Shown here piece by piece: positions 1,748-56,943 of a stretch of 64,000 nucleotides of DNA. The DNA lies in the NCBI GenBank assembly GCA_035084275.1, contig CM068754.1, forward strand, positions 15,748,001 to 15,812,000, read 5' to 3'. The notes under the pieces are model-generated. The model saw only the letters and a program-made list of their open reading frames with translations. It ran no database searches and was not told the DNA's origin. Origin of the DNA: Hydrolagus colliei. Its lineage: Eukaryota. The translations under genes and the position numbers were made by a program. Position 1 is the stretch's first letter. Each line of letters begins with the position of its first letter.

Positions 1748-4700
1748 ATGAAGCCTGCGATACAGAGGAGACGTTCAGCACCTACAATGGCCATTAGCAA
1801 AGCTCTGAGCAAAACAAGAAGCCAATCGAGGTGAGTGCTTTTGTTCTTTAAAAGGCGATTGGATTCCGGAAACCTGGAGCTCTCTCTCATCCCCCAAAAA
1901 GGCTGTGGACGCCGGATTTCACCCACAAAAACCGTACAGTCAATTCACTTTACGGTATATTCTGTGAAACGCTTTGAGACATCTAGACGATGTGAAAAGC
2001 GCTATATCAAAGGCAAGGATTATTATTATCTTCAGGACCCAGGCAGATAGCTATTTGTTAGGTCGCGGTATTCAGGGACAGTGGCATGAACTCATCGGAC
2101 GCAATGCTCTGTTTCTGTACCACATCAATACGTAGCACCACCTCGCATTGATAAAGATCCCTTCCACACAGGACAATGTCTTGAATGAGGATGCTTTGTC
2201 ATTCGATGTCCAGCTTTTTTTTAGATAGCCTTGTTGATCATGAGCAGATGGAAGACATTTCAAAGCTTTGTAGCATTTTCATTACACAGTACTTTCAAAG
2301 CAATCGAAAAAATAAATGTTTAGTTTCTCAATCAAACCTACAACAATATTTGTTTGGGGTCAGCGATCGCAATCACTGCTGGTTGGACAGAACAATGTAG
2401 CAGTGTAGACTGAAGCATTTGGGGAAAAAAAAATTCCTCGAATGTACATTTTGCTCTTAATTGTGGCTTGAAGGGTCGATTCCATATTTCTTAATCTACT
2501 TAGGATAGTTGGCAGTGTCAATCGTAAAAATGCTTCCCAAGAAGCTTGAATGGCTTGGATTCCGTCCCAACGCAATTTCCTGGTTAAAAACCATATCTCA
2601 AAAATAGAACTTAACGTACAATTTGTACATGGCTCATTATGGGGTTTATACTGTGTAAGATACTTGTTGTCTTTCCAGCGTTTCAAATTTAGCTCCTTTC
2701 CTTTTCCCGCTTATGGCTGCGTCAATGCTTATGTGTGTGTCAATGACCCGCATTTGGTACATTTTATAGTCAATTTGCTTTGCAGTACAGGTAGAACCCG
2801 TTTAACATGGTCTCGGTTAACTTTTTTTTCGTTATTACGTTGCTGATACTTTGGGAACATATGTTCATTTAACGTTGCGATGTTCGCTATTAGGTCGTTC
2901 GCCAGCGGGTGGAAAGGGGGCACGATGGCGCTAGGACCTGGGAGTGAGCCAGGCCGGCAGCGAGAGACAGAGAGATAGTCGGCAGCGAGTGAGTGAGTTG
3001 GGCAGGCAGTCAGGGAGCGAGTTTTATGTTTTTTTTAAAGAAAATTTTGACGAAAAATGTACCAAAGAACCTAACTCCAGTTTTTACATTAATTCTTGCG
3101 GGAAAAACATATTTGCGTAACGTCGATTCACTTAAAGTCACACTTTTCAAGAACCAAACTACGTCGTTAAGTGGGGTCTACCTGTATATCCTTTACGTTT
3201 GATGTCGCGCTTTTAAGGTGGGGGAGAGCACTGCAAAGCGCTTCACGGGATTTACTGTGAAGTGCAGTGACCGTGTATTCTGGAGACAAACCTCAGCAAT
3301 CAATACGCATAACAGCCAAAAGTCCCACAAACGTCCACGACGCGAATGAGAAGTTTTGCCGGTTTGGGAGAAACTCGTCTGCAGACATTCAAAGTCTCGT
3401 CCAAAAGGACGTTGCACTTCGGAGAGGTAGTTTACTCTCTGACTTTATCCCCCAAACCCTTCACTGTGACTTCACTGAAGGCAGAGATTAAGAGCTTCTC
3501 CTGCGGAGATCACAGGAATAAACCTACTGTGCTGCGCACAAGGCATGTGAGGGTAGGTTTGTGTGTCTGACTGCAAACAAAAGCATGGTTTAGAATGCTG
3601 ACAATCTCCCTTGCACAAGGATTTGGCAGTGATTAAGAATTGGCCTGACTTAACACTAAGGTCAATAGAGTAATGCTGGAAAGGATTTTTCTTCACATAA
3701 ATCCACGAGACTTCGAAGGTTTGGAAGTCAAACCTTCCACCATAAAACATAAAAATCATGCTGTTTCTACAAGATAAAATAAAAGTCCACGGAGGTATTA
3801 AAAGAGACGGGTGACATTTTTATTAAATACTAAATTTGCCAATTTAAACTTATTAAATTTCAACACTGTTAATGGCAGAGCATTGCATGGCAGAATGGCC
3901 TTCTCATTGTCGAGTCCTTGACCACTCTGAATCCTTATCCTCTGCTCATGAAATATTAATATTAGTAGCTATAGAGAATGCCCACATTGCCACCACCAAC
4001 ATGGAGAAACGTGGGAGAAAGTATTAGGAGACATGTTGTTCTTATGCATTCTGCCCAGTATAAAACTCTCACGCAGTTATTACATTAGTGCGCAAACAAA
4101 TTATTCTGCCAGAGGTTTTAAGCCACTATGATACCAATAGAAGTACAATGTTACTGGATGGATCTGAATCTCCGTCCGTTTCAAGATACCCAACGGATCC
4201 TTGTGAGAGCCTGGCAATTTCTGTCTTGGCATTCACTCTCTTGTACACATTGACACTGGGTTCAAGGGCTCCAATCTCTCTCCACACATTTCAACAAAAA
4301 ACTAAAGTACCCAATTCTGTTGGCTTCATGCGATCGGAGGGTTGGTCCGTTCTAACGTCCTCAACTCAAGTGAAGGAGAAGCATTAATCAGACTTCCTTA
4401 TCTAGTTATTAATGATAATAATCCTTGCATTCATTTTAAGCAGCTTTCACGCCGAGAGGACGTCTCAAAGCACTTCACAGGATTTACACTGAAGTGAAGT
4501 GACTGTGTATTTTTTTAATTGACTGCTGAAAGGTCCCTGCAAATCACCCATCTACTTAACCATATATGTGTAAAGGTGCATTTCTAAACGTGTGTCTGCC
4601 TGCTTGCCTTCTTGTAGGCTGTACATCAATGATAATGCGTGTGGATGTATGTATATGTGTACGTATGCATTTGTAATATAATTGATAGCTGAAATGCATT

Positions 4701-18443: not shown

Positions 18444-18616
18444 GAAGTGTAAAATCCCGCACATCCTTCAATGTGTTTTTAATTAAGTTATGTGCATTGC
18501 GAATTTCAGCCACACACTTTTAAAACCAGGTGTTGTGGTGTTATGGCTCACTACTGCTACTGCCCCAGCGGGAATGGTCACATGTAGGTTGTCAATGAGC
18601 ACGAGGACTCGTAATA

Positions 18617-19057
18617 CAGTAAAACCCGCCTGAGTCTTGCCTTTTTCAAATCGTATAGTGGACAAAGTCGTACGTGCTCTTAGGTCCGCCCTGAGTCCTA
18701 TCAACACCACTTAGATTTCATTGCACGTTTCACATTGACCCACGAATACACAGCCAATTCGTTTTACAGTATATTCTGTGAAGCGCTTTGAGATGTCTGG
18801 AAGATGTGAAAAAACGCTATATCAAACGCAAGGATTTTTATTAGTAGTAATAATCATCCTCTAACTTCTAACACCGCTGCCCTTATTTTCCATTACCCCT
18901 GCACTACCGCCTGCTCACATACCAGCTATGCTGAATTACGCAGTTAGTTTATTGATTAAATCGGATTTTACACGATTTATACAGTTTACCTGTAACTCGG
19001 GACTTCAAGTAAGTCATGTTATTTGTCGCGTTCCCGACTGATACATGAGTTTTACTG
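18617..19057. mobile_element. Degenerate Tigger-like MITE with a nested SINE tail, just downstream of the ARHGAP20-like stop codon
   Basis: TA|CAGTAAAAC ... GTTTTACTG|TA termini; a SINE 3' tail lies at ~18740-18840 inside it. Confidence 0.5.
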
Positions 19058-22000
19058 TATTACCACAGGGCTTCCCACTCCAAACCTTCCTGACCTCAGC
19101 ATGTGTTTCACATTGATCCTTATCCTACACATTCACACCCACCACAGATCATCATCTATGGCCAGGTGGCGTGGGGTGGGAATGCGGAGTGTGATATCAT
19201 CACTGGTGATCATGTCACACTCTGTAGTGACGCGCTCCCTCTTCTCCACATCTGCCCCCCCACCACACCCCCCCCAGCCCTCCGTCTTGCAATCTGCCTT
19301 AAACCTATCTGTTTGATTCAAACGCCTGCCGTTGAGCCAATATGTTATTCCTTGAGCTGTTCATTTCTTTCTCATTTCTCTGCGGCTCGGCTGCCTCTGC
19401 TTCTCCAGAGGTTAACCCCCCCCCCCCACCACCCCACCCACCCCTTCACATTGTGACCTGTCGCTTTGGTACATTCCGTATTTTTGTGTAGAATGTTTGG
19501 ATTTTGATATAAATGTATACCAAGGTACACGGTTTTTGGTCCTAGAAGATGTCTATACTTTTTTTTAAAAAGAAAAATTCTAAATATCGTTTCGTTCTGA
19601 CATTGCATGAGCAACAGAGGCCCTTCCATTGAGCGATACTGATTCAACCTGTAAACTGTTTGCCAGTTGATTTTAATGCCAACTAATAATTACTTTGATC
19701 ATACTGTATTACTCAATGCGAAGAATTCTGTAGGGCACCCACCCGCATATCTATTGATCACACCCGGCAGACACTAAAATTATTTGCGTGTTTTTTTTGT
19801 TGAAAAAGGAATAGGTCAAAGCTTTAAAGTGATGATTTAATGCAAGGTGCCATTACAGTGTAATGCTGGATAATAGTAACACGTCCGAACTGTGTTTCGT
19901 TATTTTTTTTCTTCTTGTAATTCAGATGTAATCGTTTGTACAGAGGACTTGGTGTCTGCATAAGCATTGTGAGCTTGTGTGCTAGCTAGAGAATTGTAGG
20001 GGGGACGGGACGATAACTGATTCACCCACAGAGAATCTCTCTGCTTGGTATCACCGTCAAGTCTTCGCACTTGCAGGGCGGGCGTGCGAAGGAAACGCAA
20101 ACCGTCCAAACGTTGGGCACACGGTTGAAGCACGAGAGCCAATAATTTATACGGGATTATTCCTCCAGCTGTTTCCAGGAGTTGAAATCTGAAAAGAGCC
20201 AAAGCCAAAATAGAACTGTCAGTGCTAAACGAGGAGCAGGAAAACTCTTTTTTTTTATCATTGATTGACTGACAACAGCAACCCAAGGCAGGATCCATAT
20301 TAGCTTTCAGTAGGGAACGAGTTAGATATCGGAAAGGAGTAATTGGCATGAGGAAAGGCGGATAAGTGGGACTGACTGGATTTATTTTCCAAAGAATCAG
20401 CAGGGACAATGATGGGCTGACTGGCCATTCTTCTGAGTTGTAAATTTCTGTGACTTTATAACTGACTTTGTTATCGTTCGACCCACAATATGTAGTTGCA
20501 TCTCCGACAATATTTTTTTAAATATATCAATAGCACTCATTCACTGAAACGCTCTGCGAAAAAAACAAAAACAATATGCTTGAAACTCACGTACTTTTGT
20601 TACAAATTGCGGACGTGAGCCCCACATTCCCCGCACAATAAGATTAGAGAAAACAAGGTCACCAAATAGGCGCTGAGATTTTGGGCTGACTGTTTTAACT
20701 GGTGCCTGTTTTTATTGAGTTTGCAGTTGTACATCAGGTACTGTTTGAGGTTTAGTAGAAGAGACAGAGAAAGAGAGCATGGGGCTGGTACTGTGAGAGA
20801 CGACAGAGAGAGAAAGACTTTCCACTGTGTGTGTGTGTGTGTGTGTGCGTTGGGGGGGGGTTGGAATGACACTCTGTATGAGGGGAGTTTGAAAGAGGGG
20901 AACTAGTATTTTGGGGTTCGATAGTCCCATCCTATCTCCTAAAGGAAGACATTTCTAGTACATTCTATTTGGTTTAATGACCTGATATTTAATGCACTGT
21001 TTTTCCTTTCTATATGGGGCTGGTCCCAAGCAATGTAGTGATGGAGCTCTCTACTGTATAGCTGTCCCATTGCATTGTGTCAAACCCAAATAAAATTTGC
21101 AAGGGCCTTTTAGATGCCCTTCTAAATTGGAGTGAATTTTCTGGATTGAAATGTTTCATTTCTGTGCGAGTCCCAGATCAGCCGATGACTCCTGATATCA
21201 CTTCACGTAGGAGAATCAATCTCAACTCTTTATTTAAGAACGAAGCTCATCTGAAGCGAGCAACTTCCGCAAGAATTCTTTGGTTGCCGATTCAACACAT
21301 TATATTATGGGGGTGGTGGTGGGGGGGGGGCTAAGGAAAGTCTCAAGTCCCCAGTATCTGGGAACAGCACTGCGAGCTTGTGGTAGGAACTTACATTCGG
21401 AAGAAAAATTACATAAATTGTGGATTTTAAGCGCTAAACCACATTGTGCGCCCCGCTCGTTATCTGGTCATACGGTTAGTGAGAGTATATTCTGGTTTGT
21501 CGACTCCTGCTGAACCGCCAGTGGATGTGGGCCTGTCTCGTGCTGTAAGGAGCTATCACCTCCTCTTGTTTATGTACACAGAGCCACTCGTTGTTGGGCG
21601 GCTGTGGAACATCTTGCGTCCTTTTCTGTGCAACTGCGTGTGGTTGGTTACCAAGGAGGGCTTATACAATAAAAGATAGTCACGTTAAAACGTTCCCGCT
21701 CGTCTCATTTGATGCAGCAACATTCTTTCACACCACGGTGACTGTCCTGTTTCCCATCAGCGAGGCTGTTAACTGGAAGGACTGCGATGGTGCTGGTATG
21801 TTAAACATGTATCCCAGCGAGCGAGCGCACACGGCATTCAACAGGACGTACCTTGGGTTCAAACTTTTTCCATAGATGGTACAACTGCTGAAAAAAAAGG
21901 ATCGCAGCTGGAAAGGAGTTCCACTCAACGGACTTCGTTCTATCCTTGAGAGTTCCAACAAGCGGAAATAAGAGTCCATTTCTTAAGCCCAAAGATTCCT

Positions 22001-22280
22001 GAGGGTGGAGGACTTAACCGATGGCTGTGGGTTTAAGGGAATTTTCTCATTTATTGACCGAATCCCAACAAGCTGGGATTTAATGTTCCCGATGTGCGGA
22101 AAGTAACCTTCTCGATGGTACCAGCTAAATAACCTTCTTCCCACATGTTGTCAGGGTGCAGCAGAGTGGGGCGTGCAGCTTATTGTGTGAAGGGTTTTAG
22201 GGCATTATAAAGGGCTGTATCTAATGCAAGTACTTTTACACATTAAAGAGAAGAGTTGATCCTTTGTCACTTGCAAAACA

Positions 22281-22577
22281 GTCCTTGCGTTTGATATCGC
22301 ACTTTTCACATCTTCTAGAAGTCTCGAAGCGCTTCATAGAACATACTGTAAAGTGAATTGACTGTATATGTGGGCAAAATACAGCAGCCGATTGTGTACA
22401 GCAGCATCTCACAAACAGTCTTGGACTGAAATGATCAATTTATTATTGGGAGGTTTTCAGGCTTTTTGTCAGGTATGTGGAGTAAGGAAACTTGCCCAAG
22501 ATTTCACCCTGCCTGGTATCGAACCCAGGTCACTCATTTGTAAGGCGAGCGCTCTAACCACTAGCTACAGGACTCCA
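22281..22577 (-). mobile_element. Full-length tRNA-derived SINE
   Basis: Reverse complement of the same consensus, head ggagtcctgtagctagtggttagagc. Confidence 0.85.
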
Positions 22578-22954
22578 CAAACTTCACAGTTGTATTAATG
22601 TGACATTTCTGATTTGCACATTGACCCAAGTAAAATGAATAACTAATAATCCTTGCATTTGATATAGCGCCTTATCATCACATCTTCGAAGCGTCTCAAA
22701 GCGCTTCCCAGGATACACGCAAAATGAATTGCCTGTAGCAACTAGGCAGCAAATGATTTCCCCCAAAGCTTAGTAACTTGGTGAAGAGAATGCTGCGAGG
22801 AACTTTGCGACGTCCTCCTGATGTGACGGGCGCCAGCCAAGTCCAAAGTCACGATGAACGTCGTCAGGAAATGTTTTCCAATGAATTATTAATCACAAAC
22901 CATAATAGACGAAGCAGTTAATTGCCATTTCACATATTTAATGAGAAAGAGAAA

Positions 22955-22985
<31 letters not shown>

Positions 22986-23519
22986 TTTAATCTTCCACTT
23001 TTGTTTATCTACCAAAATGAGAGGTTGTAAAAGCATTCGCAGTGAACGCACAGGGTCATTCGCACAGACACGGAGAGAGAATGGTGACTGGTATTGTTTC
23101 ATACTCCCACCTGCTGGCTGACTAGATAATGCACCACTGGTTTGCAGCACTGAAGATCCCCACTACAATCACAACAGCTCATGTTGCATGTGGTTCTGAA
23201 CAGTACAGTACCCTGCTTACCAACTAAAGACGATCCATGTCAACGCTCACATAGTTATGCAGCTTGATCTGAACTGATGTCAAACTAGCGAGGCGAGAGG
23301 CTTAAAGAGAGGGAACAACAGCACACATGCTTTTTCGTTAACTCTTATGTGCGGCCGAACTGCAGAACCAATGTCAAATCATCACAGAGACAAGTTAACG
23401 AGCACCAACATCTGCATAGTGAATAACATCTAATGCCTTTGTTTCATCGAGACATCAGCAATCAGGGTCACTGACTAAACCAGCTCCGCACATTGTATAA
23501 CAAACAATGATTTTGTCAC

Positions 23520-23622
23520 AAATACAGAAGTTGCTGGGGCAACTCAGCAGGTCAGGCAGCATCCATGGAGAAAGGAAAAAGAGTCAACGTTTCGGGTCTA
23601 CAACCCTTCGTCAGAACTGACG
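23520..23622. mobile_element. Penelope-like element terminal fragment downstream of the ferredoxin stop codon
   Basis: tgctggggcaactcagcaggtcaggcagcatccatggag...aacgtttcgggtc, recognised from memory as a common chondrichthyan repeat. Confidence 0.5.
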
Positions 23623-23922
23623 ATTTTGTCACTACTAACCAAATATGAAGGCGGTGGGTTGGTGGTGAGTCTGGGAGCCAGTACAAGGGAGGGCTCTACT
23701 CTGTGTTGTAATAAGATATTCCAGCTAATACACTTCAGTGTAGTCGATCACTTGCACCGACTGCCTGACGTCACTGCCGTCTCTGTTGGCAGCGGCAGAA
23801 ATGGGATCCAGCTCAGATCTGGCTACTTGAGTGCATTACAGTGTCGCTGACTTCGAGATTCTACAGAGGTGGGTAAACGGGCAAAGCTGAGGGGTATGTC
23901 TTCACAGGTGGTTGGCGAGGCC

Positions 23923-26900
23923 TCACTGCTTGTTTGCACCGACTGATTTCCTGATGTCAGCCATATCCTTTGGCACCTTCATGACCATCCCCTCCATAGA
24001 CCTATTCAAGCAGATCTGGCAACCCAGGCGTGACCTGGAAAAAGGACGCATTGGTACTGTGAGGTGTGGGGCGGGTGGGTGGGGGGGTGAGGGGTGTTGT
24101 TAGACGAGTATTAGACAATTATTATAATAAAAACAATAATAATCCTTGCCATTTGATATTGTGCCTTATCATGTCGTTGAGAGGTCTCCAAGCGCTTCCC
24201 AGAATATACTCTAAAGTTGTTTCGAAAGTCACTGACCATTTATTGCCCACCAGATTAAATCGCCCCATTCTGTAAGTACGGCAACTGATCCCGGCAGACC
24301 GCATTCCCGGAAGTTTCTATCTTAAACGGAGGCTTGGTCCTCCTTGCGTTCTAGTTTACAGATTGTTCCTGTGGATTCGTGTCCCTGGGAGATTCCGCCT
24401 TTGTCATTTTTAATAATAATTATTATTGTAATAATTAACAATTGAGATAAAAATTGAAATGTATTCAAATAAAAATGAAGGATTGGACCCATTGAATTTG
24501 CTCTTCCATTGAACTATTGATCCCAAGCACGATTCCCTGCTCGGCCCCCTTCAAAGATAAATTGGTCGCTTCAATCCACGACTGTTTGTGAGACACTGCT
24601 GTGCCCAATTGGCTGCTTGCGCATTTCGCCCACAAAATGTAACAGTATATCCTGTGAAGTGCTTTGAAAACGTCTTGAAGACGTGGATAAACTGCTATAT
24701 CAAGCACGAGGATTATTATTTTTAATAATATTACAGTATTAGCAAAGTAATACGTGTCTCACCCACATGCAAGATGTCTTGAAAAGCAATTAAAAAGTGC
24801 AACAAGAAACAAACGCATGTAAACCTTCTGTAAAATGTGTTACACATTTTATCACTCCCTACCGCCCACCCTCCTTCTTTCCCGGCTGCCTGTATTTTGC
24901 TCTGGCTGCCAACATTCCCCCTTTGAAATAACACTACACAGATAATTTCAAGGTCTCCCGCAGTATTTCAATTTTAGCTGTGTTTAAGAGATAAGGATGA
25001 ACCTTGGTTACGAAATAGCTGCAGATATTTAATCCAAATTCCAATGGCTTCTGACTCCACTGCAATGATATGGTCCGTGCTCTTTAATCTCTTGTTCCCA
25101 AGCAATTTGACTCTTAATTGGGGTTGATTTGCTCTTAGTTGGGTTAAGTTCGCTGTTATCTCGGTTATTGAAAGAGGAATTGCAAGGGTTATTTATTAAT
25201 AATAATAAAACTAATCCTTGCATTTGATACAGCGCTTTATCATGTCTTCAAGGCGCCTCCAAGGGCTTCACAGAATGTACCATAAAGTGAATTGACTGTA
25301 TATTTTGCGGGTGAAAATTGATCTTGGTGAAATGGACGATGGAACGATGTTAGATGTTACAACAGCAACAAATTACACTTATAAAGAGTATATTTCACGT
25401 CGGGAGGACGTCCCAAGGCGTTACAGTGGGTTTTCATGCCACTAAGCCACCATTTTAACTCCGAAAAATACCCTGGTCACTTTCGTGCAATCACATTTTT
25501 CTAACGGGGGAATAAACTATGAATTTAATCCACACACCTGCTCTCCCTGCCTCCTCCCCATCCCTCTCCCCCAAACAGAAATTCCTGACATTTTCAGGAT
25601 TTTCAATTGGAGAAGTAGCGGCTATTTCACGAAGCCAATTGGGGTTTTAATGTGGGGAAACAGGAAAACAAAAATCACTAACAAAGCTGTGATCATTTTA
25701 GCTCAAGCACAAAAAGCTCTATGATTCCCTCAGAGATCACATCTGGTCTGGGAGTGGTTTCAGAATCGTAGGCGATTAACTCTGGCAATAGGTACGTGAA
25801 ACACGCCGGGGGCGTTTAAATGAATGTTGCAGATCAAAGGAGTGGCACTGGGAGTTTGCACACAACCTACATATGGTTCAGGAAACGGGCCTTTCATGAC
25901 AAAAACATTGCTTACGTATCACTCAACCCATAGGCCAAATCCAGCATATCCAACTCCTCATCCATAATCTTGTCCAGATTTTCAAAGGTCTCCTTGTCAA
26001 AGATTAGATGGCAGGTCGAGCAGGATAGAGTTCCTTCACAGACACCTGTGGCAGAAAGACAACTCATAACTCATTCATAAGTGCAGTTGACAGTCGTATA
26101 AAATTTGAATCGAGTAATAATGAATTGCCCAGATCAGATAGCATATAAATACACGCTTTGAGATATCTCAATGACGTGATGAGGTTCCAATAATAATGAT
26201 GATAAGATTATTATAATAATAATCATACAAAGGCAGGAATTATTAGGATAAATAATTATTACTGTTATTATATAGCACCTTTTCCATCATGGGGGAGGGT
26301 GGGGTGCCTTCTCAAAGTGCTTCACGCTGCCAATAATTTTTTTAAATAGTTTTTATTGAAAGCAGTAACAACATAAAACTTCAACAATCAAGAAGCCAGA
26401 ACATCAATCAATAACCTCCAGTGCAGTGTCTACAAAGCACGAGTACTCGGACAACTTGCCATGTGTGTTTGTTTTAATGAAACACTTTGATCTCTACAAC
26501 AATGTGTGGTTAATGAGCCATCGCTGTAGAATACTGCGCTGTGTCCGTTATGCTTTAAAGTGGCTCGGCAGTTTATCTGGAGCTTAAGTGACTAATTCAA
26601 TCTTGCAGACATTCTCGGTTTGCTGGTTTGGTTTAAAACATCCTCTAAAAAGAAAACGCTACGTTCACGCGTGCCAAACTACAGACGCGTGCGTTCAAAC
26701 ACACTCACCGAACCCATCGATAGCCAAGTTGTTCTTCATCACGACGTCCAGCAGGCTTTCACCCTCCTTGCCCACTCCTGTAAGAGTTTCCCCATCCTGG
26801 TTGACGAAGTAAACTACCACTTTATCACCGAGTTGGCTGCCGTGTGGAAACGGGAAAGCAAACATTAAAAAAAAACAAAGAAGAATAACAACTGGAGGTT

Positions 26901-29549
26901 GCACCAGATGTAACCGCCACAATCAAAGGGGAACGGAAGAAAACACGGAGTCCGCAAGGTAATGGGTTGTTTGGTAATTGAGATAAAAGGCATGTTTATA
27001 CTGAGAAGAGAGATTCCACAATCCCGGTTTATAGGTACAGTATTTAGTCAAATTCCAGATGACCATAATAATAAGAATAAGAATCCTTGCATTTGAGTAT
27101 AGCGCTTTTCACATATTCTAGACGTCTCAAAGCGCTTCACTGAATATACTGTAAAGTGAACTGTTTATTTGTGGGCGAAACGTGGCAGCCAATTGCGCAC
27201 AGCAGTGTCCCCACAAACAGTTGTGAATTGAAATGCCGAATCTTATTATTGTGGTTTTCTGTGTGGGAGGGATTATTATTAACCATAACCATGAAATCAC
27301 CTCTTTAACTGCCCCAAATTTCGCCTGCAAAATGCACAGTCACTAGATTTTACAGTGAAGCACTTTAGGATACATAGTTTCTTTTCAAATGGTGGGTGAG
27401 TGGTTGCACGTCAGTGTTAAAACACCAGTAAACGTGCATTGGGCCATGGGAATGTTGGTAAATTTTACTTCTAAAACAGTGTGATCTCTTATTGCTTTAA
27501 CCTTCTCAAGACGATTTGTTGAAAATTCCAAAGCGTGGAATGAAGACAAACCGTCTCCAAATTCCAAAATCAGCCCAGCCTCAACACCAGGACTTTGAAT
27601 CTTTGAACATTTTAGCTTGCGATCTGCAAATTTGCTCCCCACCCCTCCCCACCACCCCCCACATCCCACCCACCCCCACCACCCACCCCACACACTGGTG
27701 TTAAGGTTAACACTATGAGTCATCTTGAGCCTCTGGTGTTTTGCTCGTGTTTGTGAAGATTGGCCTCAAGGTTGGCCTCAAGGTTGGCCTCGAGACCAGA
27801 TCAAGGAACGTATCATTTGCAAGGATGCTTGCAAAACCAGCAAACCTGCATGTAAAGGAAATGTTCAATGGCTCTCATATCCTTTGTAGTTACGGACATT
27901 TATATCAATTTAGAAGCACGTCACAGGTCATAAATTTAAAATGCCGGGTTCATAACACAAAACAGAATCTTTCTGCGTATCAGTAGAAGCTTGCGGTTTC
28001 ACTCAAGCTCAAACGAAAAAAAAAAATAGCCTCACTGTGATTGAAAACCCCCTACAATTATTTTTCCAGATGAACTAGTCCCTTGCCTCACGCAAACAAA
28101 AAAAAGTAACGAAAAGATACTTTCAGCCGGAGTGAATCTGCTTCTAGTTTGAAAAAGAAAGACACTGAATAATCTGTAATTACGCAGAACAGACGTTTGA
28201 CAACAACAGCAACAATATTACATTTGTACAGAGGCTTTCACGCCGGGAGGACATCCCAAGGCGCTGAACAGTTGTGGGAGATAATTCAATGGGGGAAGTA
28301 ATGAAGGGTCCACGTCATGTCATAAACCACACCAACTGATTTGCAGTTTGCACAAACCACACTCATTCGGTTTGCAAACTTCAGCTGAACTTGAAAACGT
28401 ACATTTTCACTTGTATTTGAAATTCAATGTGTTTGTCTTTTTCCACATTGGTTCACTTATAAAGCGGATGTCGACAGCAAAATAATATTTTTTTAAATGA
28501 CCTTTCGTCGGCAAATTGCAACTCTAAATAGAAAGTGCCATTTTGAAAAACTATTTACCGCAAAATTTATCTATTTATCTCTCGCAAAAAAACAACGAAT
28601 CTGTTGAGCAAACAGAATGGTAAAACTAAATCTCACGTTTGCAAGCGCAATTCACACTGACCTATTTGAAATTCTCACTTGATGTATTGAGAGCTGGTAC
28701 AAATACACAGTCACTCCATTTCACGTGTGAAGCACTTTGAGACGTCCTTTCCAACGCATCCCCTCCATCTCCCTACTACTTCCATCGGCTTTCCGAAAGG
28801 CTTTGAGATGTGGTATAAAAAAATACAACATAAATCCAAGTCGTTACCATGTAAACCACTCACCCATTTCACTCTCCCATTCACCAGGAACTTTATCTTT
28901 CACTAAGTCTGAAGCAACATTGAAAGGAGGCAATAATTGATTGTGGCAATCCCACAACCTGCCCAACACTCAAAATAAAATTGGTCTCTCACTCCACGTG
29001 CTGCTTGTGGGACATTGCTGTGCGCAATTGGCTGCCGAGTTTCGCCCACAAAATATACAATCAAAACCACTTTACTGTATATCCTGTGAAGCGCTTTGAG
29101 ACGTCTGAACGACATAATAACGTGTCAAATGCAAGGATTATTATTATGATAACAACAGCACCTTGTGTCGCAGAGATCACACCTCGAGGAGAACTTCTGT
29201 TTCCACTTATTCTAGATAGAAAAACACACGCGTTTCGCCCGCAAATATACAGTCAATTCGCTTATATCCTGTGAAATGCTTTGAGACGCCTAGAAGACGT
29301 GAAAAGCGCTATTTCAAAGGCAAGGATTATTATTAAAGTTATTATTACGTTGCATACGCGTAAGCCTCACCTGCTGCCTGCCGCAGAGTCACTCCGGAGC
29401 TCGGACGATAGACTCAAAAGCCTTTTCGGCAGCTTTGCGGTGGGTTGGTCAAATGGAACTGGTTGCAGCGCAGAAGACCCAAAGCACCGTACTTGTTCGA
29501 AAACCAATCCACGCACCATTTGCAGCCTGGTCCAACGTAGAGACATCAT
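23923..29549 (-). CDS. fdx1b: Adrenodoxin / mitochondrial ferredoxin of FDX1 type (probable fdx1b paralog), 4 exons, 182 aa
   Basis: Exons 29549-29371, 26836-26709, 26045-25916, 24034-23923 (549 nt; intron phases 2,1,2). Basic, Ser-rich N-terminal transit peptide ([14 protein letters not shown]...). Mature part is [92 protein letters not shown]..., with four [2Fe-2S] Cys ligands and the acidic DEExDMLD helix. FDX1-type, not FDX2. The 'b' assignment is inferred from linkage to moesin. Confidence 0.9.
27760..27794. repeat. 12-bp tandem repeat x3
   Basis: ttggcctcaagg ttggcctcaagg ttggcctcgag. Confidence 0.85.
28975..29335 (+). mobile_element. Two tandem SINE 3' fragments in ferredoxin intron 1
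   Basis: Body plus tail at ~28975-29147 and a second tail at ~29228-29335, ending ~35 bp from the exon 1 donor. Confidence 0.8.
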
Positions 29550-29701: not shown

Positions 29702-31131
29702 CATAGTGTTGCAATCGCAGGGTTATTAGCCTTCCTCCCAATTTGTGGTCATTCTGTTGTGTTGCTGTAACTGACAGAAGTCAAATAAGTACATCCCAAC
29801 TCTACAAACAAAGCTTTTCCCTCCCTCTCTCCCTTTTCAATCCACGACTGTTTGTAGACTCTGCTGTTTGCAAATTGGCTGCCACGTTTCGCCCACAAGT
29901 ATACAAGTATACTTTACAATATATTCTGTGAAGTGCTTTGCGACATCGGGAAGACGTGAAAAGCGTTTTATCAAATTCAAGGATTATTGCTATTGCTGTA
30001 TTATCAGTGCAGAGTTAAAGTTAAATCAGCCTATGTTAATGAACAGCTCAAAAACATTTTTTTGCTTCAAGTGCATCACTGATCAGTGTTCGGCAACAAA
30101 TGAAGATATTCTGTGGCAATATTCCGTGGTTTCATCTTTTCATTATCCTTGGAGCTTTGATCATGTCTCAAAGATTTATCTCTCCACCGCCTCACACTCA
30201 CACACCTTGGCTTCCTTATAGCTGTGTTTTACAAAGGGACGGCAACAACAACGACAACCTCAGCAACAGCTACGTATGTTTACGTAAGGATTGAGTCTCG
30301 GAGGGTTTGTACAGGCATTTTATGTCAGGGCTACACTCTGACCTGAGAAAGCTCCTGAGGAGCATATCCGCTAAACTGGATCAATAGGGAACCCTGCAGG
30401 TCCGAGAGCAGTAAAAGCATCAACGGATGTGGGGAAGAAGCTGGAAAGTGAGATTAATACTGTGATTCAAAAGGACAAAGTAAATGTTGCACAAGATAAA
30501 GAATCAATGGTACTGGGGTCCAACCAATGAATGTTGTCTGCGCCAAAATGGAGCTCCTGTGGTTAGAGCACTTGTCTTGCAAGCTGGGGAGACCACGCTG
30601 GGGAGACCTGTGTTCGAATCCAGGCAGGTCAGGATGAAACCTTGGGCAAGTTTCCTTACTCCACACGCCTGATAATAATCCCTCCAAAAAAACTCACAAT
30701 AATGAAATTGGTCATTTCAATCCACGGCTGTTTGTGGGACACTGCTGTGCGCAATTGGCTACCCCTTACCTCTCTTGAGATTTTGAGCTGAATAAGTGGC
30801 TCCAATGACACCTTTGTCTTGCTCAGAAGGAAGTTTCTTTGTAAATCGTGTCCTGCTTTGGGCAGGAACCAACCAGCCCCAAAACAAGATTGATTTGTTT
30901 GTGGCATTCTGCTGATACCAGTGTGGAAGTATATGTGTCTTCACTGTCCAGCGAACCTGGATGAAACAGTCCCTGGGTGAGAGAACATTGAGTCCATAGT
31001 AGCGAGGGATAAATTGTGCCACTTTAAGAAGAACGATTACATACCACAAGATTTTGACAGGGGCTGGGATAAACCTGCCATCTCTTCAGCTCCTACCCAC
31101 CGTACTGCTACAACCAATGTAAGTGTTTTGT

Positions 31132-31450
31132 GGAGTCTTGGCAGCTCAGTGGTTAGAGCACTCGCCTTGCAAGCGAGAGACCTGAGTTTGATTCCAGACA
31201 GGTTACGGCAAAACCTTCGGCAAGTTTCCTTACTCCGCACGCCTAATAATAGTCCCTCAAAAAAATATAATAAATTGGTCATTTCAATCCACGACCGTTT
31301 GTAGGGACACTGCTGTGCGCAAGTGGCTGCCGCGTTTCGCCCATAGAATAGACAGTCAATTCACTTTACACTATATTCTGTGAAGCGCTTTGAGAATGTC
31401 TAGAAGACGTGCTGTATCAAATACAAGGATTATTATTATTCTATTATTAT
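31132..31450 (+). mobile_element. Full-length tRNA-derived SINE
   Basis: gcagctcagtggttagagcactcgccttgcaagcgagagacc head (TGC anticodon loop, tRNA-Ala-like), body and (TTA)n tail. Confidence 0.85.
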
Positions 31451-32804
31451 TACACAGTGAATTGCAAGAATGAAAACAACTCATTCCCTGCCATTACTGT
31501 TTTAGCCACAGGGTGGGGACTTGAGGCAATGATTGCTTTCAAAAGCACAAACCTGGCTCCCATCAATTGGTGCACCAGTTCCACAGGAAGTGGGTTCACC
31601 CTCTGAGCCACACAGGATGGATGAGTGGTATACCTGCAGCTGAACGTTTGTGTCAAGGGTGAAAGGACACAGAGACCCAGTCTGCTCTGTGGGTGGGTTC
31701 ACGAGTTGTTGAATGCAATGCAAGTTGTTGTTGACCTTCAAATCCCTCCACTCCTCTGCAGCCCTACCCCTACCTCTCTGACCTCCTCTCTCCTCACAAC
31801 AGTACCCGTCGCCTTCACTCCACCGGGTCTGGCGTCCTCGTTGTCCCCTGAATCCTTCGCTCCACCCTCAGCGGCCGTGCCTTCAGCCCCGAGGCTCTGG
31901 AACTCACTTCCTCACTCCCTTCGCCTCGCTCCCCTCTCTTCCTACTTTCAGGTCTCGGCTAAAGACCTTTCTTTTCGACCGCGCTTTCGGGCACCTTCAT
32001 TCCCCCCTCCTCCCCATGGCCCCAGGATCCATTATTGGGAAGCGCTCTGAGACGCCGTCCGATGTTGAGGGAGCAATATAAATCCAAATTGTTGTTGTTG
32101 TTGACCTCGGCCAGTCTGGCTTTGGGGATGGGAGGTGTAAGGGAAGGTGGGCGGGGGTGCGCGGGGTACAGGAAAATCAATCCAAGCTGCGCTCCATCGT
32201 CTTCTCTGCAAAGTGCAATTTTATTTTATTTCTACAAATATTATACATACATGGTGATTTTTATTCAGGGGTTGGGTGGTGAGGGGAAATATCCGAAGGT
32301 ACTTGCCCTGTTTGTTGCCTTTTTCTTTAAGCTGTAAAGACCAAAACAAGGTCTGAGAGGATACCGGTGCTTTGCATTCTAAGAAAACACGTGTGGGAAA
32401 GCAACAGTAACACAGGTGGTAATGGATACTTCGGTCAATCCTCAAAGTGCACCCCCCCACCACCAATTGCCTTCAAATTGCCTTGTGACACGGTGAAAGG
32501 AAGAGCTAACTGGAGACTTTACTCAGCAGGCATTCAGCGTACCTACAGCGATTACTTAATTTAACGGTAATTAAGAGACCAAATTGCAGGCCGGCTCTAA
32601 TCTGTGGTTTTTGGGTGTGGGGTATGGGTGGGGGGAGGGTGGTGGCGAACTTTTAATCAAACCCGTATGAATAAGAACGCAAGAGGTCTGGAATTCCACC
32701 CAACCTCCGCCTGCCTGCCTACCTGTTAAGGCCTCTTGGTCTTCAAATCGAACATTGTGGAAAATAGAACACAAAATTGCGGAAAATACTTCCAATTCAG
32801 CAAC

Positions 32805-33410
32805 AGGAATCCTACAGGGTAATAGGGTATTCTAGAAGGATGAGATTAAGTAAGAGTTATCTCATCCATAGCACCCTGAATGTAATATAACATTAAACTT
32901 GGAACAAAGACTTCAATGGGAGCAAATAGCTGCATCATTTTTACACACTGAGAAAACAGCCACAAACCCTTACCGCAGTCAGATACATATATATGAGTTT
33001 GCACCAACAGCTCCAAAGAGAAGTCGCTTTACGTTTCAAGAACTGAAGAAAGTCGGTTTCCAAATCGGGCAGGAAGCTGAGGATTTTCCACAATGTGGCC
33101 AGGTCTGAAATTTCAAGGCAAAGTATCTTACCCCCACCGGCTGAGACTTGTTGGAATTCAGTCCCCGTGATTCACCAAGTTTCTAACCCGTTACAAATGC
33201 CCTCTTTGGAGCTGTAGGTGCAAACTCGTACAAATGACTGTGATAAGGGTTGTGGCTATCTCTCAGTGTGTAAAAATGATGCAGCTATTTGCTCCCATTG
33301 AAGTCTTTATTCCAAATCTAATATTGTGTTACGTTCAGGGCGCTATGAATGAGATAACTCTCATTTTAATCTCATCCTTCCAGAATACCCTATTACCCTG
33401 TAGGATTCCT
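32805..33410. repeat. Long inverted repeat / foldback element (arms ~215 bp, spacer ~180 bp)
   Basis: 32805-33020 is the reverse complement of ~33202-33410. For example, aaagacttcaatgggagcaaatagctgcatcatttttacacactgaga is perfectly mirrored. Confidence 0.9.
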
Positions 33411-33714
33411 ACAGCTCAGTGGTTAGAGCACTTGCCTCGCAAGCGAGGGACCTGGGTTCCATTCCCGGCAGGGCGAAACCTTGGCCGAGTTTCCTTACTC
33501 CACAGGCCTGATAATCCCGAGAATAAAAAAAAAGCAATAATATATTGGTCATTCAATTCCTCGACTGTTTGTGGGACACTGCTATGTGCAATTGGCTGCT
33601 GCCTTTCACCCACAAAAATACAGTCAATTCACTTTGCAGTATATTCTGTGAAGCGCTTTGAGACGTCTAGAATACATAAAAAGTGTTATATTAAATAGCA
33701 AGGAATATTATTAT
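33403..33714 (+). mobile_element. Full-length SINE abutting or overlapping the right arm of the inverted repeat
   Basis: ggattcctacagctcagtggttagagc head, followed by body and tail. Confidence 0.8.
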
Positions 33715-36700
33715 TTGTTATATTAGACTTCCACCACAGATTCAAGCTTTATCTTGAATGAGTCCAACATCCTAATCCAGTTACCCTATAAATATCAACA
33801 TCAAATTTAAACCAGCAGTTCTGCTGTAACTGATGCTAGAGAGAATCTCAGAATATCAGTCTTTGTCAACTAAGGATCGACAAAGGAGGAAAAGATCTGT
33901 CTCCAGGTTTCAGCAGTTGGTGAGCCAGAGATTGCAAAATCAAGGAGGTGTCTGAGGTTTTCCTGCACTTCAATCCTTATGTTATTCACTGGGCTGAGTT
34001 GAGAGAAATGTTGGACGAAGGCAAACCCCACTGCTAACCAAACTGTGGTTTTCCATCAGATCAAGTTGTCAATTTAATTACCGGGTGTACCTCATTCCAG
34101 CTACCGCAGAGAAGAAACAGTGTAAAAGTATCATCAGCATCCTCTCCCTTTGGAATAAACCATCCCAGAGATTGACTGGGTTTCACCACAGACACAGAAT
34201 GTAAACTCCAGGTAATGTTAACTTCCCAGCCTGATGTTAAGTGAATGTGGGAGATTGAGAGGTGGGAGATCTCTGTTTCTGCAAAGTTAAATTTGCTGAA
34301 GAGCCACAGCAGACGCCTTAGGAAATGATCCAATTGTCTCCCTGTTTTGCCTTTCTCGCTAAATATAAGTTTGAATGGAAAAATCTGCTTTCGCTTTGTC
34401 CGAGTTGCTGGCAGCCCTCATGTCCCTGGGTCAGAAGGCTGTTGTGGCTTCTTCACAAGATCACAAGAGGGGTTTGGCTAAAGAAAGCCCTCAGACACAT
34501 TTAATCTCATCCTTCCAGGATACCCACCCTTCTTCCCATCACAACATAAAGCTGTTCCTTAAGTCAGTGTCCTCAACTGAAACCCCCTCCCCGGTAACTT
34601 GTCCCAGTCTTTAATAATTCTGTGTAAAGAAATACTTCCTCGTGTCCATCCCCAAGTTGTTTAGAACCGTGAACCTGCACCATTGCATTCTACCATCAGT
34701 GTTTTTTAAGTTTATGATTAGACTTAAACTTCACTCAGGAATCGAGCTCATTTTGTAACTGACGTTCCACTATAATACTGTGGAAGAGTACTTGCGCTGT
34801 CAATGGTACACACTGACCTTCATTCCTTTAACCTGCGAACCTGCACCACTGCACTTTCTCCTAACTCCAGCTAAATATACTTGTTGTTTGTGACTAATCC
34901 TGTTTGATAACTCTAATTAAGAGTTTTCTATGAAATAAATGACAATTTTCCAAAATGGGTTCGAACTGTGACGCCTGGAGCCACACTGACACTTAAGCAC
35001 TGAAACCTTGACTGAAAGCCTGGGAATTAGGTGGTCATTCAGGTTTGTGTAGATCAAATCTTTACATCCATTAAAAATCGATGTAGTCAACACCCACTAT
35101 AGTCTGCTTCTTCTATTCCAGCTGCCTCCCTAACTCAAACTGAATGTCCTTAATGAAAACTCTTGAGAACATCTCTGGCACCCATGGCTGTAGCTGGAAG
35201 ACTGAAATGATTGATTGATTGATTTTAATTAGATTTTCACCCACGCAATCATCTTAAAGACTGGACTTCACAGGGAAGCTCCACAATAATTTACAACGTC
35301 ATGTTAGGACTAAAGGTCCAGTTCTGGGATTTATGGCGTGTAATTATAATAGATTCATACCTCGGTTTTCTGCACTCATGCCTTGCTATTGTTAAAATGG
35401 GGGGAACCTTTAAAACTCAGTTTACAGCATATTGGCAGGTGTCCCTAGTCGTACCTTTGCATTTCCATGCACAAGTAGTGAAACAATGATAGCGCCGTGA
35501 TCTGTGTTTGATGACGGATTAACTGACCCGATCAATTTTGAGACAGTTCCAATCACTCTATACTGTAAACGACACTTACCGAAGAAAACGTCAGCTAATT
35601 TTTATCTACCTCGGGACGTCCTCCCGACGTGAAAGACACTCTGCAAATATAATTTTTTTTGTTGTTGTTCAGGGGGCGGGGATGATGTTACAAATGAGTT
35701 GGTGCTCAAATGGTGCTTCAGTCAAGAGTCTACAGGATGTCCATGGCAATGAATGGGCAATCTACCAACCTAGGTGAATTGATAGATTAACGTGCATTAG
35801 TAGGACAGAATGGAGAGGTTTACTCTCCCGCATCAAGCTGTGTCATACATCAAGTGAGCGCCTGTAATGGAAACAATTCCTCACCTTTAACAGGGACCGA
35901 ATGTAATTTGGAAAACAGCTGGAACACACAAGACCATTTACACCAATGAAAGCTGAATTTTTGAACAAAAAAACACACAGCAATCGTGTAGCACACGAGC
36001 CAAAACAATTTTTTGATCACACATTGGGCCAAGAGGCCAAAATCAAGTGATTCGTTCTAAGACTCCGCAGGAATCAAGCGGAGAAAAGAGAACTGTGTGA
36101 GATTAAAACATTTTCCTTGGAAAAAACCCCCAGCCGTCAGTTAAAGAGTATAAATGTTGTATTTACTTATGGCCATGCTGAGATTCAATGGAACAAATCA
36201 CACAGCAAAACAGAACTGAAAGGCTGGTCAACACATGGTGAACACCGATATACTGAGTAAACTCATCTCAACAAACCCAGCTGCCGAAGGAACCCAGGGC
36301 TGCAGAATAAATCACTTCCTTCAGGAGTGGAGAAAAATTGGGAGTGTTTAAGTGTGAGAGACCACCTGCTGAATTAATAGAATCATTCTGGTTTCCAACC
36401 CATGATTTGATTTATATATACTGTGTATATATATGTACATTATATACAATTACACACACACACCATTAGCTGATTTTCTACAAAGCTTGTTCCCCAAGTC
36501 CTTACAAAACAGGCAGCCCTCAGGATAATACTCAAAACGAGCTTCAATCCTCTACAGACCCAGCTGAACAGGAAGGCAGTGTAGTTTACAGGTTTGTGTT
36601 ATTTCAAACAATTACTGGGTAAGTGCCCCGCTTTGTGTTCCAGATCATCCTTGGTCATCACTTGATTCCGGCTTCTGTGTTTGCCCAAAAATCACATTCA

Positions 36701-37273
36701 CTTTAACTTCTATTCAAATTAAGATTTTTGTCAATGTTTATACTGTATTTACATGAAGGATTCTTCGTATTCACAAAGACAATACTTTCTCTCTTTCACC
36801 CCCCACCCCCACCTTTGTGTGACAATTCTAGTACTTTGTACTGCCTACTTGCTTCCTCTATTATCAATTCTCATCTCTTGCCCTATCTCTGGAATTGAGT
36901 CATTTTGATGGATTGGTAAACGACAAGTTAATTGAATTGTACCTAGATTCTTCCCATTCCACAAATACCATTCTCTTTCACGAGGGGTTTGACAAGCCAC
37001 GGTAATGGTGATACAGCTGGTGACTGTTTCACAGTAGGTGGAATGGAACATGTAATTCCACGAGGCAGCCTACCTTAACATCAAAGGCAACACACACTCG
37101 CACACATGCATGCACGCAGACCCACGTGGAGATAAATAATCCACCCGCGACTCCAATTAAGAATGGCTAGTTTGCAACCCTGCGTCTCGAAAGAATTCAA
37201 GCCTTTCGCAAAAACGGCTGCAATAAACATAAGGTCGCGGGGGGGAAAGAGAAAACATTCGACTTTATGAAAA

Positions 37274-37279
37274 TTTATT
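37274..37279 (-). promoter_or_regulatory. Distal polyadenylation signal of moesin
   Basis: AATAAA on the minus strand, followed by a U-rich tract (tgttttctctttccc). It ends a ~2 kb stretch without recognisable repeats after the stop codon. Confidence 0.6.
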
Positions 37280-38294
37280 AGCACAAAAAAGGTGAAAGGA
37301 ATACAAATCCAGAACAGCAAAATGTTGTATTACCGAGATCCCATTTGTAACTAGTTAAATAGCAAACAGATTTCACTAGCACGAAGAAATTTACACTGGC
37401 CAATTTCCTACTTAATTTACAACACAGAATATGAATAAGCAGCGAATGCTAACAAGCTCCACAGCCTTGCTAACTATATAAAGAATCGCTCGTTATACAG
37501 TGACATTGAAACCAGGAAGGTGAACTTTCTTTTTTAATACAAATCAACAGTTCTCTTAATATAATACTGCGAGTTCTTAAATCAATTCTCCTGCAAATTA
37601 TAAGATGTCTTCACAAGCATCGATACTCTGTGAACAAACAGGTACGGAAAGAAAAAAAAATTCTAAATAAATTTGCTCTTCCTACTTTGCATAGATAAAG
37701 TTGTTTTGAAGTCCAAAGTAAATACATTGAGTATAATACTATAAGGAAAAGGAGAAACCAACTACATAAGGAGTAAACATGGTTACAAACATTAATACAG
37801 GTACGCATAACACTGTAAATATAATGGTTTTTGGCATTTTCATAGTTTTTTCCTAAAAAAAGTGACACACAACATGACAGCCCCCAACAGAGTTTCCAAT
37901 TTAAATATGAAGCTCAGATGACAAAGTCCGCACTAACATTTTCGTCAAGTGTGCTCGTGGACTTTTAAAACTTAAAAAAATGATTGGAAGGATTTCAATG
38001 GAAATCCTGACCTATCCACACTTCGAAAGTCAAAGGATAGAGCTGTCCTTAAAAGAAAATGGCGGTGTTTTTAATACTACAGTCTTAGCCAAATCAACCC
38101 TCGTTGGTGGGTCAAAATCTGTAATGAGCCAGAGTTAAACCACCAAACTGCACTTAATGAGGTAGTAACTGCTCCCTCCCAGGCACTGCTCTCTCTCTCT
38201 GGATGATTTTGACTAGGTATGGGGCGGGGTGGGAAAAAAAATAATCACATCGACCTCTCCCTTGCAGATACACTTGAAATTCCAAAATAAATCC

Positions 38295-38300
38295 TTTATT
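38295..38300 (-). promoter_or_regulatory. Candidate proximal polyadenylation signal of moesin
   Basis: AATAAA on the minus strand ~1 kb after the stop codon, with moderately GU/U-rich sequence downstream. Confidence 0.35.
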
Positions 38301-39303
38301 AGCAGTACAATCAATATTTTCCACAGTTGAACTATATGCTGTTTTACAGAATACAAAAAAAAATTCTTCTTACTAAATTCTACGAGTGAGATGATGCTCT
38401 TAAGGCTATGTATGGTGTATATGCGTCAAGCAGAAATACTCGGGATCTTTAAATAGTTTCTATTATTTCCAGCCGTATAGTTAGTTTCACAAAAAAACAT
38501 CTAAAGAGTTTGTCCCATTTGAGAATTTGAAAGAAAGTGTTAAATTCACAATGGCATGGCAGGCTGATGGAGCTTGGGATCTCAAGAAATTTGCTCATTT
38601 TCTTGGCACTTCGTTTATTTAGAATGATTCAAAAGACAAATTTGGAAGTCATTTATTCCCCCAACCACAGCTATCCTCTCGATTCAGCTTTGCCCCAACA
38701 CCTGTTCTGCTTGAACCCATAGTGCAAAAGTGGATAACAAAACAAAGGACTAAATAACCGATAACCGAACAATTTAAGCGATCTCAAGCCTCTATTATTG
38801 TGGTAATCTAATTTAGCCAACAGCAATTTCAGTGTAATCATCTTTTTATAAAAAAATGTGGCCTCGAGAATAATGGGTTGGTTTTTTTTTAAGGGGGGAG
38901 GGGGAAGAGAAACAAAATATAAAAGTCAAAATATAAGTTAATGGAAATATTCAAGTTTGTTAATTTAAATCGTGAAGAGTTGATGTGTAAAAAACAATTG
39001 GCATTTAGATGGGTTCGGGGAGTTAGGGAAATGCGGTTCACATAAAGTTGTGAAGGGACAAGCTCTAAAGCAACCATAAGCCACCCCCCACCCCCCCAAA
39101 AAAAATGTGCAACTCTGCAAACAAGGACTACATTTTGTGCTAGACTAGACTTCAGAACGAACTCAGGAACAAATCGGATACAACTCTTGTTTTCCACCCC
39201 AGATTCTGCTGGACGCTGGCGTGCTGTAGAATGGGGATTCTCTGCAGCTTATGACAAAACCAAATTCACTCCTCTGTAGTGGCCGAAAGCACGGATCGGG
39301 ACT

Positions 39304-56943
<17,640 letters not shown>

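Follow-up and report, generated by a model that had tools for sequence, protein, structure and literature searches.

A probable moesin-FDX1B-ARHGAP20B locus in the chimaera Hydrolagus colliei, the likely sister of the radixin-FDX1-ARHGAP20 block

The window, i.e. the whole 64-kb stretch of Hydrolagus colliei DNA that was analysed, most likely holds a moesin-FDX1B-ARHGAP20B locus, one of two sister blocks that were duplicated before the split of cartilaginous and bony fishes, most likely by the second whole-genome duplication (WGD) of jawed vertebrates. We estimate the probability of this reading at roughly 80%. The initial annotation had described the stretch as an MSN-anchored sister of the RDX-FDX1-ARHGAP20 block, and this description is borne out by an ERM tree that places the anchor gene with moesin, by the existence of a separate chondrichthyan radixin, and by the presence of both blocks in chicken. 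The block as such is ordinary and already known from annotation, and is thus not a discovery, because the chicken annotation names MSN-FDX1B-ARHGAP20B and NCBI names the Callorhinchus milii protein 'ferredoxin 1b'.

Exon-by-exon reconstruction recovered the ERM gene, the FDX1-type ferredoxin and the ARHGAP20-like gene as intact neighbors, with the limits and orientations under which they had been recognized initially. All 27 of 27 introns of the three genes are GT-AG, and no frame contains an internal stop. Along the minus strand in 5' to 3' direction, the ERM gene comes first, the ferredoxin follows in the same direction, and the RhoGAP gene faces both. The ferredoxin is thus located 3' of the ERM gene and co-oriented with it, as had been noticed before, and starts 9,754 bp past the ERM stop; its own stop lies 5,479 bp from that of the ARHGAP20 gene, tail to tail.

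1748..18443, plus strand: ARHGAP20B with PH, RA and RhoGAP domains and a long C-terminal exon; 14 coding exons, 1115 aa, 13/13 introns GT-AG; exons 1748-1830, 5825-5995, 7557-7706, 7879-7920, 8317-8401, 8886-8963, 9321-9396, 12024-12212, 13490-13668, 14017-14178, 14710-14819, 15037-15226, 16092-16209, 16729-18443
18444..23922, no strand: convergent 3' intergenic interval between ARHGAP20B and FDX1B, 5,479 bp
29549..23923, minus strand: FDX1-type mitochondrial [2Fe-2S] ferredoxin, most likely FDX1B; 4 exons, 182 aa from the first ATG at 29549, 3/3 introns GT-AG; exons 29549-29371, 26836-26709, 26045-25916, 24034-23923
29550..39303, no strand: moesin stop to FDX1B start, with moesin 3' UTR and FDX1B promoter region, 9,754 bp
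56940..39304, minus strand: moesin (msna), coding exons 2-13, 578 aa, 11/11 introns GT-AG, exon 1 outside the window; exons 56940-56857, 49198-49103, 48743-48469, 46791-46708, 46368-46222, 45215-45119, 44260-44097, 43398-43268, 42800-42640, 42063-41971, 40088-39849, 39468-39304

Candidate poly(A)-signal hexamers are present on both strands of the convergent interval 18444..23922. In 29550..39303 no further gene was recognized, the part from 35000 to 38000 being judged from ORF lists only, and LAS1L, ZC3H12B and VSIG4 are outside the 64-kb window. A search with Rfam at gathering threshold gave no microRNA, its sole matches being seven tRNA-like repeat heads. The short first exon of the ERM gene was not found in the window by a motif scan; a stretch of 12 residues at 57623-57588 that matches the start of C. 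milii moesin was rejected as exon 1, as it has neither a start codon nor a GT donor. Each of the three genes has its nearest named relative, among the matches listed, in C. milii, with protein identities of 96.0% (ERM), 85.7% (RhoGAP) and 76% (ferredoxin); these proteins, Moesin a (P0002), ARHGAP20 (P0242) and ferredoxin 1b (P0121), belong to a species other than that of the window.

Judged by its sequence, the ERM gene is a moesin. The search with exon 4 gave 3397 matches, of which the best 120 were listed and the 41 named ones were used. The window protein is 96.0% identical to C. milii Moesin a and 83.0% to the radixin-type protein P0058 of the same species, and shark and ray moesins are 87-89% identical to it. 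Raw identity would nevertheless mislead on the ERM class, because radixins score 83-84% over the whole protein, as high as bony-vertebrate moesins; this fits the description of radixin as the slowest-evolving ERM (PMC6978628, in part), a source that also gives ezrin as sister to radixin plus moesin with 100% bootstrap. The tree, a quick one without bootstrap, was calculated from 40 rows after exclusion of two long branches, an insect protein and ezrin, the latter being the only one available. In this tree, 28 moesin-type rows including the window are split from 12 radixin-type rows with an SH-aLRT of 100, and a grouping of the window with radixin is rejected (dlnL 58.9, p-AU 1.8e-7). Such a grouping was part of the outcome that the initial annotation had named as speaking against its own reading, and as the window ERM does not group with radixin, this objection falls away.

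The residues of the ERM protein, which had been called moesin-diagnostic, turned out to be mostly so. At the 29 columns that separate 13 bony-vertebrate moesin rows from 5 tetrapod radixin rows, the window has the moesin state in 15, the radixin state in 9 and another state in 5 cases, and the corresponding figures for the radixin-type C. milii protein are 0, 25 and 4. We take a polyproline run before the C-terminal domain to be a criterion for radixin, and its absence to indicate moesin. In the 40-row alignment, the window has two tandem prolines at this site, and runs of at least five (one Leu allowed) are found in 11/11 tetrapod and chondrichthyan radixin-type rows. In keeping with the FERM domain, helical region and C-terminal ERM domain of moesins, the protein matches Pfam FERM_M and ERM_C, and its last exon encodes KYKTL, the actin-binding motif of ERM proteins (PMC6978628, in part).

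The predicted RhoGAP is ARHGAP20B, the moesin-linked paralog of this family. Searched with exon 10, it gave 207 matches, and there are no mammalian names among the best 120 that were listed. Its identity to C. milii P0242 amounts to 85.7% over the whole protein and to 94.9% within the GAP domain. Compared to 22 further named matches that cover this domain completely, the values for the domain are 68-85%, with 80-85% for sharks and rays and 68-76% for coelacanth, lungfish, amphibians, reptiles, birds and a char; for the moesin-linked proteins of birds, amphibians, lungfish and coelacanth they are 71-76%. To PDB 3MSX, which presumably represents the domain of human ARHGAP20, the C. milii protein is about 59% and a loon protein about 57% identical (counted by eye), and because of these low values ARHGAP20 proper falls outside the chimaera and bird group, as far as pairwise distances rather than a tree can tell. 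Pfam RHG20_PH and RhoGAP were matched on single window exons, and the RA domain was assigned from the precomputed Pfam annotation of the C. milii ortholog. The arginine aligned with that of p50RhoGAP, which we take to be catalytic, is kept. An isoform of Heptranchias ARHGAP20 begins at the same Met as the one at window position 1748, and tblastn gave no match in 1-1744 to the upstream exon of C. milii and shark isoforms.

The association of the three genes is not limited to the chimaera. As a proxy for linkage, we regarded two genes as linked if they have the same longest contig, judged by identical size, which on a large chromosome indicates the same chromosome and not adjacency; the values were compiled by hand for species present in two match lists. 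By this measure, a contig is shared by MSN and GAP in 15/16 species, by FDX and GAP in 17/20 and by MSN and FDX in 3/4, and the mismatches (one, three and one species, respectively) may be due to differing assemblies. Shared contigs include ones of 58.8, 61.8, 62.0 and 351 kb, the lungfish carries all three genes on one chromosome, and the linkage spans sharks, rays, coelacanth, lungfish, sturgeon, a newt and birds. Locus tags of Bambusicola (862/864) and Hirundo (15208/15210) leave a single gene between MSN and GAP. Moreover, a falcon UniRef entry of 184 aa that is named 'Moesin' is in fact FDX1B (89.7% identity to loon FDX1B), which points to a gene model in which two neighbors on one strand were fused, and thereby to a co-orientation of MSN and FDX1B in birds as well. 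Radixin behaves differently: like C. milii, sharks and rays have a separate radixin-type protein besides moesin, radixin is found on another contig than moesin in 4/4 sharks and rays, and a contig is shared by radixin and GAP in 0/2 informative species, the radixin value of Cetorhinus being discounted as it stems from a shared-cluster Carcharodon chromosome.

In chicken, both blocks exist in one genome and on different chromosomes. The order on chromosome 4 is ZC4H2, ZC3H12B, LAS1L, MSN, FDX1B, ARHGAP20B, HSF3, EDA2R, AR (PMC12681815, in part), in which the three genes and their order match the window, and chromosome 1 carries ARHGAP20, FDX1, RDX and ZC3H12C (PMC10976558, in part), so that ZC3H12B and ZC3H12C constitute a fourth paralog pair between the blocks. 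An SNP in an FDX1B exon and an SNP in an ARHGAP20B intron are 3.7 kb apart in chicken, compared to 5.5 kb between the stops in the window (PMC12681815, in part). The chicken source, as far as its consulted part goes, is a GWAS without strands or evolutionary reading, whereas the window stems from a cartilaginous fish. The block ZC3H12C-RDX-FDX1-ARHGAP20 of chicken chromosome 1, sheep chromosome 15 and cat D1 (PMC10976558, PMC8355708, PMC8813908) has the same families and the same ERM-ferredoxin-RhoGAP order, with genes that are paralogous to those of the window.

These data would be explained if an ancestral ZC3H12-ERM-ferredoxin-RhoGAP segment had been duplicated once before the split of cartilaginous and bony fishes, with one copy giving rise to the RDX-FDX1-ARHGAP20 block and the other to the MSN block. 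The presence of moesin and radixin in chondrichthyans dates the duplication before this split, and three-point distances of the GAP domains agree; the ferredoxin duplication itself is dated only as before the split of ray-finned and lobe-finned vertebrates. The likeliest cause would be the second, jawed-vertebrate WGD, although we infer a WGD rather than a segmental origin. This event has been described as an allotetraploidy with biased loss on one sub-genome (PMC7269912, in part), and the RDX and MSN blocks may well be its products, with the MSN block as the loss-prone copy. A linkage-group-to-chicken map was not found in spreadsheet supplement 3 of that paper. In mammals, FDX1B and ARHGAP20B would have been lost beside moesin, in keeping with the absence of mammalian names among the 120 matches listed for each gene. 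We assume that the chromosomes of the two blocks have been assigned to sub-genomes of the jawed-vertebrate allotetraploidy.

Gene orientation would add one further step. Human RDX and FDX1 are presumably head to head, the ERM gene of the human RDX block is, as we assume, oriented opposite to that of the window, and in human EZR/TAGAP as well as RDX/ARHGAP20 we take the RhoGAP gene to be 5' of the ERM gene and co-oriented with it. If these strands hold, an inversion in the moesin block would have flipped the ERM gene, as moesin and ARHGAP20B of the window converge. The literature and the supplement searched give no strands for RDX and FDX1.

Could the two blocks instead go back to a segment that was duplicated locally in the stem of jawed vertebrates, or to the first genome duplication and not the second? 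Such an origin would be compatible with the fact that just four gene pairs (ZC3H12, ERM, FDX1, ARHGAP20) are seen and that the spreadsheet supplement of PMC7269912 holds no map onto chicken; moreover, a segmental origin has been raised because synteny of human ERM genes is poor (PMC6978628, in part). We nevertheless consider it unlikely, as the blocks are on different chromosomes in chicken and on different contigs in all four sharks and rays, and as the timing agrees with a duplication that precedes the last common ancestor of jawed vertebrates (PMC7269912, in part). The pairs AR/PGR, GRIA3/GRIA4 and OPHN1/ARHGAP42 are, as we take it, on the same human chromosomes as the two blocks, and this would count against a segmental origin as well.

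The ferredoxin is the gene of the block whose assignment requires most care. Of 371 matches, the best 120 were listed; among these, C. milii 'ferredoxin 1b' is the best (76% over 181 aa), and mammalian names are absent. The features of adrenodoxin are kept, namely Cys46/52/55/92, His56, the acidic helix Asp72-Asp79 and Pro108, and a mitochondrial presequence is predicted from length and position only. As the C. milii ortholog matches adrenodoxin with E~1e-54 and ferredoxin-2 with 5e-21, the predicted window protein is an FDX1-type adrenodoxin and not FDX2. Trees were calculated for the mature domain (49 rows) and for the full length (39 rows, 10 having been left out because their N-termini were incomplete or wrongly predicted). 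The 46 named bony-vertebrate rows fall into two groups: FDX1, with proteins of teleosts, reedfish, frog and lizard (support 91/89 in the full-length tree), and FDX1B, with lungfish, sturgeon, bonytongue 'Ferredoxin 1b', turtle, crocodilian, lizard and bird proteins (86/92 in another of the trees), the latter being recovered as a single group in 95% of the 200 bootstrap trees of the full-length set. One gecko species has both. Since both groups span ray-finned and lobe-finned vertebrates, their duplication is older than the teleost duplication.

Within this framework, the chimaera ferredoxin is probably the FDX1B ortholog, on the grounds of its position, its termini and the NCBI name of the C. 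milii ortholog. It is located between MSN and ARHGAP20B, as is FDX1B in chicken. A profile of the N-terminal region gives 11.5 bits for FDX1B versus 0.9 for FDX1, and the result is reversed for an oyster control (0.7 versus 4.0). Residue 116 is Gln in 19/20 FDX1 rows and in 0/26 FDX1B rows, and the window has Lys. The presequences of the chimaera proteins comprise 62-63 residues, compared to 42-54 in 17 FDX1 rows and 42-62 in 19 FDX1B rows. A long presequence and a non-Gln residue at 116 as marks of FDX1B-type termini were derived here from the 46 rows.

A reading in which the block is a moesin block with a ferredoxin that is an ortholog of FDX1, or a copy converted by FDX1, has to be weighed against this. 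The trees leave the chimaera pair unplaced: with the mature domain, neither placement is rejected (AU 0.482 with FDX1B, 0.491 with FDX1), and in the best full-length tree the pair stands beside FDX1 at 41/83. The window has the FDX1 state at 5/6 mature-domain columns that separate FDX1 from FDX1B, and its mean mature-domain identity is 64.9% to FDX1 versus 63.2% to FDX1B. However, FDX1-like columns may be ancestral states, the gene holds the position of chicken FDX1B, and presequence length, N-terminal profile and C-terminal tail favor FDX1B, and we therefore regard this second alternative as quite improbable. That the window is a plain RDX-FDX1-ARHGAP20 locus can practically be dismissed: the three families are identical and the ERM protein resembles radixins as much as bony-vertebrate moesins, but the ERM tree and the AU test (p=1.8e-7) refute this identity, C. 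milii has its own radixin-type protein, and the best matches of the GAP share contigs with moesin and in neither of the two informative species with radixin.

The FDX1B-type ferredoxin of the window has diverged fast. Compared to C. milii, 23/111 mature-domain positions differ, while the GAP domain differs at 10/197 positions and moesin at about 4%. When the state of most remaining vertebrate rows is taken as reference, the lineage of the window accounts for 15 changes and that of C. milii for 4 (binomial p=0.019, a single post hoc test). Two of the changes are beside cluster cysteines, namely Ala45Val, found in 0/48 other rows, and Ala51Ser, found in 1/48; further changes are Arg14Gln and Thr71Met, and all cluster ligands are kept. 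Both relaxed constraint and adaptive retuning are compatible with these changes, and Ala45Val and Ala51Ser could possibly retune the redox potential or the P450 partners.

Functionally, the three genes would act independently, being kept together by inherited synteny and not as one pathway. Moesin would serve as membrane-actin linker and ARHGAP20B as RhoGAP, while FDX1B, by analogy with zebrafish Fdx1b, most likely supplies the mitochondrial P450s of steroid-producing tissue with electrons that it receives from ferredoxin reductase. In zebrafish, fdx1b is restricted to steroidogenic tissue and indispensable for cortisol (PMC4769370, in part), and in pike FDX1B shows a testis bias, as does STAR (PMC13296275, in part). 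The zebrafish protein is an FDX1-type paralog like that of the window, and position 71 is non-phosphorylatable in both, with Val in zebrafish and Met in the window (PMC4769370, in part). In our trees, whose row set did not include the zebrafish sequence, teleost proteins of the name 'Ferredoxin 1b' cluster with the moesin-linked ones of sturgeon, lungfish and birds. According to the consulted part of PMC4769370, the ferredoxin pair arose by the teleost duplication and zebrafish is the sole teleost with both. In contrast, we find the FDX1B-type paralog in chimaeras, lungfish, sturgeon, bonytongues, reptiles and birds, and it is also present in pike (PMC13296275, in part). It is conceivable, at somewhat less than even odds, that FDX1B is a dedicated steroidogenic ferredoxin throughout jawed vertebrates that originated from the second genome duplication and evolves fast in the chimaera.

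What does the block change? It had been expected that annotation driven by synteny would mislabel it. This applies mainly to the RhoGAP, which in sharks is named plain 'rho GTPase-activating protein 20', and to many bird and reptile ferredoxins ('adrenodoxin-like'), but not to moesin, which is labeled correctly. A statement that combines the parts into a paralogon was not found in the PMC-CC and bioRxiv full text, and subscription journals or ohnolog databases may carry one. The human-centered ERM study reported one radixin-moesin neighbor pair in human and little synteny of ERM paralogs, and left a local origin open (PMC6978628, in part). Its text and supplement, as far as consulted, do not mention FDX1 or ARHGAP, and the block adds these two radixin/moesin neighbor pairs that were overlooked.

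Instead of going back to the teleost duplication (PMC4769370, in part), fdx1b would have originated no later than in the ancestor of bony vertebrates, and probably in that of jawed vertebrates. The zebrafish fdx1b mutant would then be a model for losing a paralog that seems to be missing from mammals, and a steroidogenic ferredoxin of their own is probable for birds, reptiles and sharks. If the proposed role of FDX1B is true, cartilaginous fishes, lungfish, reptiles and birds would split their electron supply between a housekeeping FDX1 and an FDX1B of steroid tissue, as zebrafish does, and mammals would be the exception, in which both jobs went back to FDX1 after the loss of FDX1B and ARHGAP20B beside moesin.

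The ferredoxin gene of the window (23923-29549, minus strand) encodes a predicted protein that is faster-evolving than its Callorhinchus milii ortholog, as 15 lineage-specific changes fall on the former versus 4 on the latter when the mature domains are polarised against the majority of other vertebrate sequences (p=0.019, binomial, a single post hoc test). Among these changes, Ala45Val and Ala51Ser are unusual residues that adjoin the cluster cysteines, Thr71Met is a further change, and Arg14Gln is also found in the FDX1B of sturgeon and bonytongue.

Among the 120 listed of 371 matches to this ferredoxin, there was neither any shark or ray ferredoxin nor any frog or percomorph FDX1B, whereas sharks and frogs are abundant among the RhoGAP matches listed. 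The missing ferredoxins may be due to a ranking effect or to independent losses of FDX1B. One of the matched proteins, the falcon UniRef entry P0167, is labelled "Moesin" and is a 184-aa FDX1B, which suggests merged gene models or a read-through from MSN into FDX1B. FDX2 lies on a different chromosome from FDX1. The side-by-side placement of both genes on 11q22 in a review (PMC12670532, Introduction) therefore looks like an error.

For ARHGAP20B, Pfam detected no family above cut-off in the last exon:

16729-18443, plus strand, last ARHGAP20B exon, encoding ~570 low-complexity residues

The C-terminal tail is acidic-hydrophobic and conserved, reading ESYV in both sharks and chimaeras and ESFV or ETFV in lobe-finned vertebrates, and it resembles a PDZ-binding motif. 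A swallow model matched by the RhoGAP search (P0338), in which a partial ARHGAP20B-like GAP domain is joined to a PF00429 domain, is probably a fused prediction.

Copies of a ~330-bp SINE-like repeat, which has a tRNA head and ends in an (ATT)n-like tail, are abundant throughout the window (38 loci, 6.1 kb in total), and none of the 38 loci lies inside a coding exon of the window. The copies have a median identity of 81% to one copy, 3' fragments predominate, and seven heads pass the Rfam tRNA threshold.

Example copies of the SINE-like repeat
7029-7332
11187-11508
31142-31446
33412-33715
51455-51800

In case of moesin, an intronic stretch (57623-57588, minus strand), when translated, agrees with the UniRef model of C. 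milii moesin at 11 of that model's initial 12 residues. This match is probably a spurious predicted exon, but it reveals non-coding sequence that is conserved ~650 bp 5' of exon 2. The C. milii radixin-type model likewise opens with an 11-residue non-standard leader. At the site of the radixin polyproline run (within the exon at 39849-40088, minus strand), chondrichthyan moesins have two prolines and bony-vertebrate moesins at most one, and this gradation from the run of the radixins suggests that an ancestral proline tract was lost stepwise.
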